From assembly GCF_003334255.1 (NCBI RefSeq), contig NZ_QOWU01000216.1: a stretch of 597 nucleotides of DNA; one strand, written 5' to 3'. The notes below the pieces were generated by a model that was not told the DNA's origin, did not search any database, and was given only the letters and a program-made list of their open reading frames with translations. Position 1 is the stretch's first letter. Every line of letters begins with the position of its first letter. The position numbers were made by a program, and so were the translations under genes. Shown here piece after piece: positions 22 to 448 of the stretch. Source of the DNA: Escherichia coli. Its GTDB lineage: Bacteria; Pseudomonadota; Gammaproteobacteria; Enterobacterales; Enterobacteriaceae.

Positions 22-48
22 GAAAAAACAAAACCCGCCGAAGCGGGT
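22..48 (-). terminator. Rho-independent terminator of the hok mRNA
   Basis: Minus-strand reading is ACCCGC-TTCG-GCGGGT followed directly by TTTTGTTTTTT: a 6-bp GC-rich stem (33-38 pairing 43-48), a UUCG tetraloop and a U-tract. It sits 69 nt downstream of the hok stop. There is no T-run on the plus-strand side, so it looks unidirectional. Confidence 0.85.
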
Positions 49-49
49 T

Positions 50-117: not shown

Positions 118-273
118 TTACTCCTCAGGTTCGTAAGCTGTGAAGACAGCGACCTCCGTCTGGCCGGTTCGGATTCGTACCTCGCAGAGGTCTTTCCTCG
201 TTACCAGTGCCGTCACTATGACGGTTAAACAGATGACGATCAGGGCGATTAACATCGCCTTTTGCTGCTTCAT
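118..273 (-). CDS. hokD: Hok/Gef family type I toxin (small membrane-depolarising peptide), HokD/RelF-like, 51 aa
   Basis: Minus-strand ORF from ATG (complement of 271-273) to TAA (complement of 118-120), 156 nt. Translation: MKQQKAMLIALIVICLTVIVTALVTRKDLCEVRIRTGQTEVAVFTAYEPEE. It has a single hydrophobic transmembrane segment and a conserved Cys-containing TRKDLCEV core, as in Hok/Gef proteins. It matches my memory of E. coli HokD (RelF) and is close to, but distinct from, HokC (Gef). Paralogue naming is from recollection and the context differs from K-12 hokD. An AGGAG Shine-Dalgarno lies 9 nt upstream. Confidence 0.93.
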   Translation of the reverse strand: MKQQKAMLIALIVICLTVIVTALVTRKDLCEVRIRTGQTEVAVFTAYEPEE

Positions 274-329
274 AGCCTGCTTCTCCTTGACCTTTCGGTC
301 CGTAAGAGGCTAATCTCTATGTGTCGCAT
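270..329 (-). CDS. mok-like leader ORF (19 codons), translationally coupled to hok through an ATGA start/stop overlap
   Basis: Minus-strand ATG (complement of 327-329) is preceded by GAGG with an 8-nt spacer. Translation: MRHIEISLLRTERSRRSRL, ending in a TGA (complement of 270-272) that overlaps the hok ATG. It starts 56 nt upstream of hok, at the position where mok starts in hok/sok loci, but in the +1 frame. The frame in phase with hok is closed by a TAG 13 codons upstream of the hok ATG. Whether the peptide is made is untested. Confidence 0.45.
   Translation of the reverse strand: MRHIEISLLRTERSRRSRL
283..287 (-). promoter_or_regulatory. Shine-Dalgarno sequence of hok (AGGAG)
   Basis: Minus-strand AAGGAGAAGCAGGCT-ATG; AGGAG with a 9-nt spacer to the hok ATG. 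Confidence 0.7.
287..316 (+). promoter_or_regulatory. Candidate sigma70 promoter for the Sok-like antisense RNA
   Basis: Plus-strand TTGACC (287-292), 18-bp spacer, TAATCT (311-316); predicted start near 322-324. The -35 overlaps the hok Shine-Dalgarno on the opposite strand. The -10 matches consensus only at T1, A2 and T6, so this rests largely on position. Confidence 0.45.
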
Positions 330-380
330 AGATATGGCCTCAGATTAATGTTAAGCGTCTTGCAGGACGCGTAATGTTAA
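322..380 (+). ncRNA. sok: Sok-like antisense RNA antitoxin (type I), boundaries approximate
   Basis: A plus-strand transcript from about 322 would be exactly antisense to the Shine-Dalgarno and AUG of the mok-like ORF (complement of 327-341). It ends in a stem-loop, GCGTC-TTGCAG-GACGC (355-370), extendable to an imperfect stem over 345-380. Size (about 55-65 nt) and position relative to the mok start fit known Sok RNAs. The 3' end is uncertain (378 to about 392) because no clean U-tract follows the stem. Confidence 0.5.
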
Positions 381-393
381 CTGGGGCTTTTCT

Positions 394-430
394 CTATCTG
401 CCTTTTGGTGTTCATGCCTGAGACAGATAG
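394..430 (-). repeat. Inverted repeat (hairpin) in the hok mRNA 5' leader
   Basis: Plus-strand CTATCTG (394-400) and CAGATAG (424-430) are perfect reverse complements, extendable to about 10 bp with one G-U pair, with a 17-nt loop. It lies immediately 3' of the leader element at 431-448 in the mRNA and may belong to the leader's regulatory fold. Confidence 0.4.
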
Positions 431-448
431 CCTCAAGCACCCGCAGTC
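431..448 (-). promoter_or_regulatory. 5' leader (tac-like) element of the hok mRNA, complementary to the 3' element at 50-68
   Basis: See the feature at 50-68. It sits directly downstream of the predicted -10, that is, at the extreme 5' end of the predicted transcript. Confidence 0.5.

Follow-up and report, generated by a model that had tools for sequence, protein, structure and literature searches.

A nine-nucleotide direct repeat in a prophage hokD/hokW-sokW locus of Escherichia coli as the probable arms of the Sok 3' hairpin

Introduction

The Sp5 hokW-sokW locus of the Sakai strain is a functional type I toxin–antitoxin (TA) system with an antitoxin RNA, sokW, of 71 nt, whose activity depends in part on RNase III and Hfq and whose promoter has been demonstrated by mutations in the -10 element (PMC8621323). 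The paper that describes the system contains no analysis of RNA secondary structure, hairpins or repeats (PMC8621323). For R1 hok/sok, the mok Shine–Dalgarno (SD)/anti-SD (ucb) stem-loop is described as 'closed', the substitution A106G locks the hok mRNA in this closed form and strongly inhibits Hok translation, and C74T has been recovered as a loss-of-function substitution (PMC9841398).

Here we analyse a window of 597 nt from Escherichia coli in which the nonamer TAATGTTAA occurs twice on either side of a GC-rich stem. The two copies are very probably the arms of the middle helix of a single hairpin-encoding segment (336-388) within a hokD/hokW-sokW locus, a segment that provides the 3' stem-loop of Sok on one strand and the mok SD/anti-SD stem-loop on the other. 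The element is an ordinary part of a known system, hokW/hokD, whose SokW/SokD 3' hairpin and mok SD/anti-SD stem-loop it encodes, and it shows one small lineage-specific twist. Its significance beyond correct annotation is slight, as the feature belongs to a well-known antitoxin RNA.

A complete hok/sok locus in a lambdoid prophage

The window harbours a complete hokD/hokW-type hok/sok type I TA locus on its minus strand, which is part of a lambdoid prophage. The Rfam sok family (RF01794) matches positions 442 to 271 of the minus strand over the full model (1-157), scoring 106.7 bits (gathering score 59; E = 2.9e-25), and the GC stem-loop at 355-370 forms a 16-nt insertion relative to the Rfam consensus. 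The window is identical over its whole length (100%) to E. coli chromosomal records in which the hok ORF is annotated as HokD; in these records it is embedded in a lambdoid prophage, with replication genes on one side and RusA and antiterminator genes on the other. Several hallmarks of hok/sok systems are found in the window, namely a Hok ORF of about 50 amino acids, the Rfam score, the antisense architecture, a coupled mok and tac/fbi pairing. The features of the locus are the following:

273 to 118, minus strand: hok coding sequence, 51 amino acids (HokD, WP_000813254.1, in a 100% identical record)
270 to 329, minus strand: mok leader ORF of 19 codons, with its AUG at 329 to 327 and a UGA stop that overlaps the hok AUG (AUGA)
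419 to 445, minus strand: 5' end of the hok mRNA with the tac region, whose pairing partner is fbi near the 3' end (53-80); the start of the Rfam model falls at 442
32 to 49, minus strand: terminator-like hairpin at the 3' end of the hok mRNA, from the promoter/terminator scan
about 323 to 391, plus strand: putative SokW-type antitoxin RNA, its ends taken from the homologous sokW annotated in phage 933W (71 nt)
287 to 316, plus strand: putative sok promoter read from the sequence, with the -35 element TTGACC (287-292), an 18-nt spacer and the -10 element TAATCT (311-316)
313 to 335, minus strand: neighbouring hairpin with the mok start codon (329 to 327); its sequence is the complement of the Sok 5' tail and varies strongly from locus to locus

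The tac and fbi regions form inverted repeats in which 437-445 is complementary to 53-61 at all nine positions and 419-436 corresponds to 63-80; the MFE fold of the 415-nt hok mRNA accordingly closes both ends (z = -9.2). The ends of SokW are those of a 1999 annotation transferred by homology. A consensus promoter scan of the window called no promoters, the sok promoter included, and a terminator scan did not call the Sok hairpin either; these two assignments therefore rest on homology and on our reading of the letters. Hok toxicity, its neutralisation by Sok and cleavage of the duplex by RNase III are reported for hokW-sokW of Sp5 (PMC8621323).

A weak isrK-like Rfam match lies at 28-109 of the minus strand (27.2 bits against a gathering score of 50), where it overlaps the fbi region and the terminator; the terminator hairpin, rather than a separate sRNA, is its most likely source. 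The Rfam matches outside the sok family (isrK, ceN48, CRISPR-DR28 and rsmX) score far below their gathering scores, overlap either the hok terminator or the Sok hairpin, and were treated as chance.

Predicted pairing of the repeat copies in the Sok 3' hairpin

The sequence-only reading from which this analysis started had described a direct repeat flanking a GC stem, and both parts of that description are accurate: TAATGTTAA is found without mismatch at 346-354 and at 372-380, with a start-to-start spacing of 26, and GCGTC (355-359) and GACGC (366-370) sit between the copies. On the plus strand these elements assemble into one structure:

336 to 388, plus strand: full 3' hairpin of the SokW/SokD antisense RNA, 8 + 9 + 6 = 23 bp with 5 G.U pairs, -28.2 kcal/mol
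346 to 354, plus strand: left TAATGTTAA copy, which together with T345 makes up the 5' arm of the middle helix
372 to 380, plus strand: right TAATGTTAA copy, the 3' arm of the middle helix, pairing with 345-353
355 to 370, plus strand: apical GC stem-loop GCGUCU-UGCA-GGACGC, absent from hokC, PPompW-gef and R1-type hairpins

In the MFE fold 336-343 pairs with 381-388 (8 bp), 345-353 with 372-380 (9 bp) and 355-360 with 365-370 (6 bp, closed by a UGCA loop), and the helix is broken only by a bulged A344 and an A354/G371 mismatch. The proposal that one copy pairs with the other, lengthening the GC stem to a long imperfect hairpin, is thereby borne out, with the difference that the hairpin spans 336-388 and thus reaches beyond the 345-380 originally suggested. 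It is also, as had been supposed, the 3' structure of Sok, namely the 3' stem-loop of a Sok-type RNA, given that sokW of 933W maps to about 323-391. In its fold (-29.3 kcal/mol, z = -5.0) the putative SokW of 69 nt consists of a 5' tail of 13 nt, the 53-nt hairpin and a terminal UUUU; the plus-strand folds have z = -4.8 to -5.0. The hairpin is followed by UUUUCUCU, whereby the U tract consists of UUUU and then CUCU, and the annotated 3' end of sokW maps within the U run. The consensus terminator scan did not flag 336-388, probably due to the interrupted helix and the short tract. By analogy with R1 Sok, this hairpin would terminate the short antisense RNA and protect it.

Why the arms of a helix should read as a direct repeat follows from their composition. 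The decamer UUAAUGUUAA (345-354) is self-complementary once U.G wobbles are allowed, and a sequence of this kind placed on both sides of a loop is at once a repeat and a pair of arms. The two wobbles of the middle helix, U349.G376 and G350.U375, are adjacent; if the central UG on one side is replaced by a dinucleotide compatible with Watson-Crick pairing, the helix is kept and the direct repeat is lost. What reads as a direct repeat is thus incidental to the quasi-palindromic arm and its tandem wobble. The wobbles also make the arms strand-specific, with nine of nine arm pairs forming on the plus strand versus seven of nine on the minus strand.

A weaker predicted stem-loop on the hok mRNA strand

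The same segment, read on the opposite strand, encodes a second hairpin:

336 to 388, minus strand: mok SD/anti-SD (ucb) stem-loop of the hok mRNA, with the SD GAGG at 341 to 338 in its 3' side and the anti-SD at 387 to 383 (GCCCC box) in its 5' side, -17.8 kcal/mol

All five wobbles of the Sok strand turn into A.C mismatches on the hok strand, and the hok-sense stem-loop is predicted to be about 10 kcal/mol weaker than the Sok hairpin (-17.8 vs -28.2). The sequence-only reading had offered, as a further option, that the repeat might form the matching structured region of the hok mRNA targeted by Sok. A structured region does exist on that strand in the form of the ucb stem-loop, but it is not the loop that the 5' tail of Sok is expected to contact first. 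According to the R1 model the Sok 5' tail makes its first contact with a target loop of the hok mRNA; judged by its position, the counterpart in the window may be the neighbouring hairpin at 313-335.

The two strands also differ when the hokW/D clade is taken as a whole, with 394 of 411 cells paired in the Sok sense compared to 317 of 411 in the hok sense; G.U accounts for 81 cells on the Sok strand and 4 on the hok strand. The Sok-sense fold is more stable than the hok-sense fold by 4.8-12.1 kcal/mol in 19 of 19 hairpin types across hok clades as well as in the R1-type hairpin. In Pseudocitrobacter hairpins of the L231 type the asymmetry is small (about 2.5 kcal/mol). If both repeat wobbles were Watson-Crick pairs, the hok-sense stem-loop would gain a predicted 7.7 kcal/mol in stability, and the Sok hairpin only 2.9. 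The R1 substitutions A106G and C74T, whose numbering we checked on the R1-type sequence, each close the homologous A.C mismatch.

By homology with R1, the minus-strand segment would hold the mok SD by means of the anti-SD box in a translationally closed hok mRNA. The central UG of each repeat copy would appear as a tandem U.G/G.U in Sok and as a 2x2 A/C internal loop in the hok mRNA, providing a strong hairpin for Sok and a hok stem-loop weak enough to open after 3' processing. The exactness of the repeat and the difference in stability between Sok and hok would consequently share one cause, since the central UG wobbles in Sok and is mismatched in hok. We infer that the UG may be kept because it allows one DNA segment to encode both a strong Sok hairpin and an openable hok stem-loop, a selective reading of the tandem wobble that draws on one R1 pair and on thermodynamic prediction. 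The locus offers a clear case of one DNA segment encoding two hairpins of unequal strength, in which the wobbles are all on the Sok side, and the two in the middle of the repeat would account for about 8 kcal/mol of the predicted difference between Sok and hok.

Conservation of pairing and of repetition

Of 5,426 complete E. coli genomes, 4,221 carry the hairpin, at 8,368 places in all, and the best place reaches at least 95% identity in nearly every record. No columns of the leader are better conserved than the two repeat copies, whose major-allele frequency is about 0.995 among 52 distinct hokW/D-type leaders. Two-sided covariation is absent within the E. coli hokW/D clade, where shuffle controls were not exceeded; as two-sided changes do not occur there, the clade alone is uninformative on covariation. 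The structural support comes from comparison across genera and clades, which comprises few independent lineages; the extended hairpins of Kluyvera and Pseudocitrobacter were recovered by scanning one genome for each species.

An alignment of 15 distinct extended hairpins, drawn from Escherichia, Kluyvera and Pseudocitrobacter, has 94.3% of its cells paired, a value reached by none of 500 shuffles, and 11 cells carry two-sided pair changes such as G355-C370 to A-U, a count that likewise none of the 500 shuffles reaches. Sliding the partner by one to three columns as a control lowers pairing to at most 47%. Comparison with other hok loci, which had been suggested as a check on whether the repeat is conserved or covaries, hence gives a divided answer: the pairing is conserved with compensatory changes across genera, while repeat identity drops to 5-7 of 9. 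In E. albertii, Kluyvera and most Pseudocitrobacter loci pairing is kept at 7-9 of 9 positions while direct-repeat identity is 5-7 of 9. The individual substitutions have the same character. Each of the changes G350A (L006) and T375C (L020) replaces a wobble by a Watson-Crick pair at the cost of the repeat; in the left copy of E. albertii L227 a change of TG to CA makes both pairs Watson-Crick and leaves a repeat identity of 7/9. It is thus the pairing that is conserved, not the direct repetition.

Further afield, the basal stem covaries across hok hairpin types (position 6 is A-U or G-C; position 7 is G-C, C-G or A-U). The sister clades, encompassing hokC, the PPompW 'gef', the R1 type and about 12-15 further types, have a shorter and unrelated interior that contains neither TAATGTTAA nor the GC top. 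Absence of the repeat from otherwise conserved homologous loci had been proposed as a sign that it is under no functional constraint; the absence is real in these clades, but that conclusion does not follow, because a different hairpin occupies the same place.

One locus departs from this pattern. A Pseudocitrobacter MAG (L230, about 7139-7201, minus strand) carries a different exact nonamer, TGAATGTTA, in both copies at the same 26-nt spacing, amounting to a parallel T to G change at the same repeat position on both sides; this is a single case, and it is not predicted by pairing alone.

Several further observations concern the distribution and variation of the hairpin. In L041 and L093 the apical 16-nt palindrome (equivalent to window 355-370) is inverted to GCGTCCTGCAAGACGC, that is, T360C together with G365A; this inversion and the TG to CA change of L227 are paired double changes of the kind made by template switching at quasi-palindromes. 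E. coli-type hokW/D loci also occur on short contigs of MAGs labelled Haemophilus, Collinsella, Scatousia and Lachnospiraceae (L234, L236, L237, L238 and L242), which are probably contaminating Escherichia prophage sequence in the bins. A long hairpin in Photobacterium (L233) has similar flanks and another interior; it was dropped, as it has neither an Rfam sok match nor a Hok-like ORF, and two matches in Stappia are due to chance.

Variable Sok tails and loci without hok

The Sok 5' tail and the target hairpin (317-335) form the most variable stretch of the leader, with a major-allele frequency of 0.79 as opposed to 0.98 for the hairpin (52 leaders; L002-L093). Many distinct tail variants occur among 32 distinct Sok sequences in loci that are otherwise near-identical hokW/D, and some genomes possess up to 8-10 copies of hokW/D loci. 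The hypervariable tails could mark distinct Sok specificity groups that avoid cross-talk. The mok of the window has only 19 codons because of a 2-nt gap at 325/326 relative to 933W; the tail/mok variant of the window is the commonest in the sample, being present in 16 of 83 loci with a Sok match.

P1-like phage-plasmids carry a copy of Sok without hok (L090:1460-1570, L091:1460-1620, and L094 (phage SJ46), L095 and L096 at about 1460-1580). This copy retains a sok-promoter-like TTGCTC-18-TAATCT, the 5' tail and the full hairpin, and it is located directly downstream and on the same strand of a 198-aa ORF, where related plasmids (L007) have hokD. The ORF belongs to PHROG 7522, a family of unknown function, and has no PADLOC match. 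In the diverged copies (L094-L096) three G.U-creating substitutions keep the pairing on the Sok strand only. The hok-less Sok could be an orphan antitoxin or a reused terminator.

Loss of the hok coding sequence with retention of the hok leader and Sok is also seen in some chromosomal loci (L244:1100-1210, L116 at about 6730-6770, and the contig ends L227 and L242); the E. albertii locus L227, with its fully Watson-Crick repeat helix, belongs to this class. The idea that a new toxin has been fused to the hok leader was rejected: in one class of candidates a partial ISNCY transposase abuts the hok start codon, and in the other the sequence after the hok SD leads into an unrelated ORF of 43 codons.

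Origin of the apical tip and alternative readings

The hairpin of the hokW/D lineage contains 26 nt more than an R1-like tip of the form GUUAAU-GAAA-AUUAAC. The additional 26 nt can be read as one copy of the arm plus a 17-nt palindrome, GCGTCTTGCAGGACGCG, and their removal leaves AUUAAUG/UUAAC, which resembles the R1-type tip GUUAAUG-AAAA-UUAAC. This tip is specific to the hokW/D lineage (Escherichia, Kluyvera and Pseudocitrobacter) and, by comparison with R1, most likely arose when a duplication or insertion enlarged the loop of a GUUAAU/AUUAAC hairpin like that of R1. The palindromic arm itself still calls for an origin, since the a priori odds of a 10-mer being self-complementary with wobble are about 0.7%, or (6/16)^5.

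It has been suggested that the repeat is a mere footprint of replication slippage. In its wider form this explanation holds that the repeat is mainly a mutational trace, left either by slippage or duplication of a 26-nt module or by a small palindromic insertion with a 9-bp target duplication, and that the repetition has no function. As a claim about origin it is compatible with our preferred reading, and it competes with it only insofar as it takes the segment to be functionless; we regard it as possible, if rather unlikely. The perfect identity of the copies (9/9) at 26-nt spacing would fit such an event, as would the R1-like tip left by deletion of the 26 nt, the treatment of the tip as an insertion in the Rfam alignment and its absence from hokC, PPompW-gef, the R1 type and about 15 other types that share the flanks and have a loop of 4-7 nt in its place. 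The second exact nonamer of L230, at equal spacing, points in the same direction. The intermediates that the event would have passed through are another matter. The empty-site sequence CAGATTAATGTTAACTGGGG has 0 exact matches in viral contigs, a 50-nt artificial empty-site query against E. coli genomes retrieved the filled, two-piece form throughout among the matches listed, and searches for the GC top with one arm copy (two gapped patterns with a short left or right arm) returned no hok-type hairpin; all ten one-arm pattern matches were chance hits in GC-rich phage contigs outside a hok context. Likewise, neither an empty site nor a one-sided intermediate of an insertion element with a 9-bp target duplication was seen among the viral contigs and the listed E. 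coli matches, and to our knowledge the 17-nt palindromic insert matches no mobile-element end (IS termini). Against a functionless segment stands its conservation, as it is the most conserved part of the leader and its pairing is kept by compensatory changes across genera.

A very unlikely reading is that the exact repeat as such is what is preserved, whether through concerted evolution (template switching or gene conversion between the arms) or because some reader requires the nonamer on both sides of the GC stem, which would make the tip a lineage-specific functional module of prophage SokW RNAs. The sole positive hint is L230 of Pseudocitrobacter with TGAATGTTA in both copies. If it were true, the maintained tip could, for example, tune SokW turnover during SOS induction and would not be a passive extension of the helix.

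It is highly improbable that each nonamer serves as a sequence-specific site needed twice, whether by a DNA-binding regulator, by a nucleoid protein or, at the RNA level, by a factor like Hfq; selection would then act on the identity of the sequence itself. The copies hardly vary in E. coli, the parallel T to G change of L230 affects both, and Hfq is partly needed for the antitoxin activity of sokW (PMC8621323), but in E. albertii, Kluyvera and most Pseudocitrobacter loci the copies have diverged from each other and the helix persists, and the substitutions fit RNA pairing (G.U to A-U or G-C) and not a shared motif. Both copies moreover lie inside both transcription units, downstream of both putative promoters, and are buried in a duplex in the predicted RNA. 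An RNA duplex is a poor site for Hfq.

By position alone the repeat is only modestly unusual: when the window is shuffled 5000 times with its dinucleotides preserved, an exact 9-mer direct repeat turns up at any distance in 37% of shuffles (mean 0.60) and within 40 nt in 4.4% (mean 0.058). A chance coincidence devoid of structural or historical meaning, for which the first figure leaves room, is nevertheless close to negligible given the rarity of a repeat at such short range, the strongly non-random fold and conservation at thousands of loci; the repeat is not chance, because the same hairpin is widespread in E. coli and the copies are the most conserved leader columns.

Comparison with described hok/sok systems

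The hokW-sokW locus of the Stx phages 933W and Sakai Sp5, like the hokD/relF-type prophage loci of E. coli, belongs to the same family as the window and has the same hairpin. The leader of 933W is about 90% identical to the window over 271-445, and the homologous locus is annotated as hokW, mokW and a sokW misc_RNA, the latter corresponding to about 323-391 of the plus strand. Its hairpin is built from the same two TAATGTTAA arms and the GC top, with TTGCCGG in the loop where the window has TTGCAGG. Differences reside in the Sok 5' tail and target loop (317-335), in a few C-terminal residues of Hok, and in mok: mokW of 933W is a 70-aa in-frame N-terminal extension of HokW, whereas mok of the window comprises 19 codons and ends on the hok AUG.

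The R1-type (IncF) locus, for which we used a sequence verified against 2,661 plasmid records at an identity of at least 99%, shares the overall plan of a Sok 5' tail and 3' hairpin, with a GCCUC.../...GGGGC basal stem and arms of the UUAAU/AUUAA type. On the hok strand the likeness extends to the hok-sense stem-loop (+70 to +110 of the R1 hok mRNA), whose 3' side contains the mok SD GAGG, and to an A.C mismatch opposite the SD A, where the unpaired C74 faces A106. The R1-type hairpin shows the same strand inequality (-23.0 kcal/mol Sok-sense vs -11.4 hok-sense). It is smaller, with 17 bp and a GAAA loop in the place where the window has a second arm segment and the 6-bp GC stem (23 bp, -28.2 kcal/mol), and it lacks a 9-mer direct repeat, a palindromic UUAA being all that its two arms have in common.

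In hokC/sokC (gef) and the PPompW-prophage 'gef' the flanks are conserved (about 90% for PPompW), including the sok promoter region, the basal stem, the U tract and the tac region. Their hairpin interior is unrelated, with 20-23 nt between GCCTC and GGGGC compared to 41 nt in the window, and contains neither TAATGTTAA nor the GC top.
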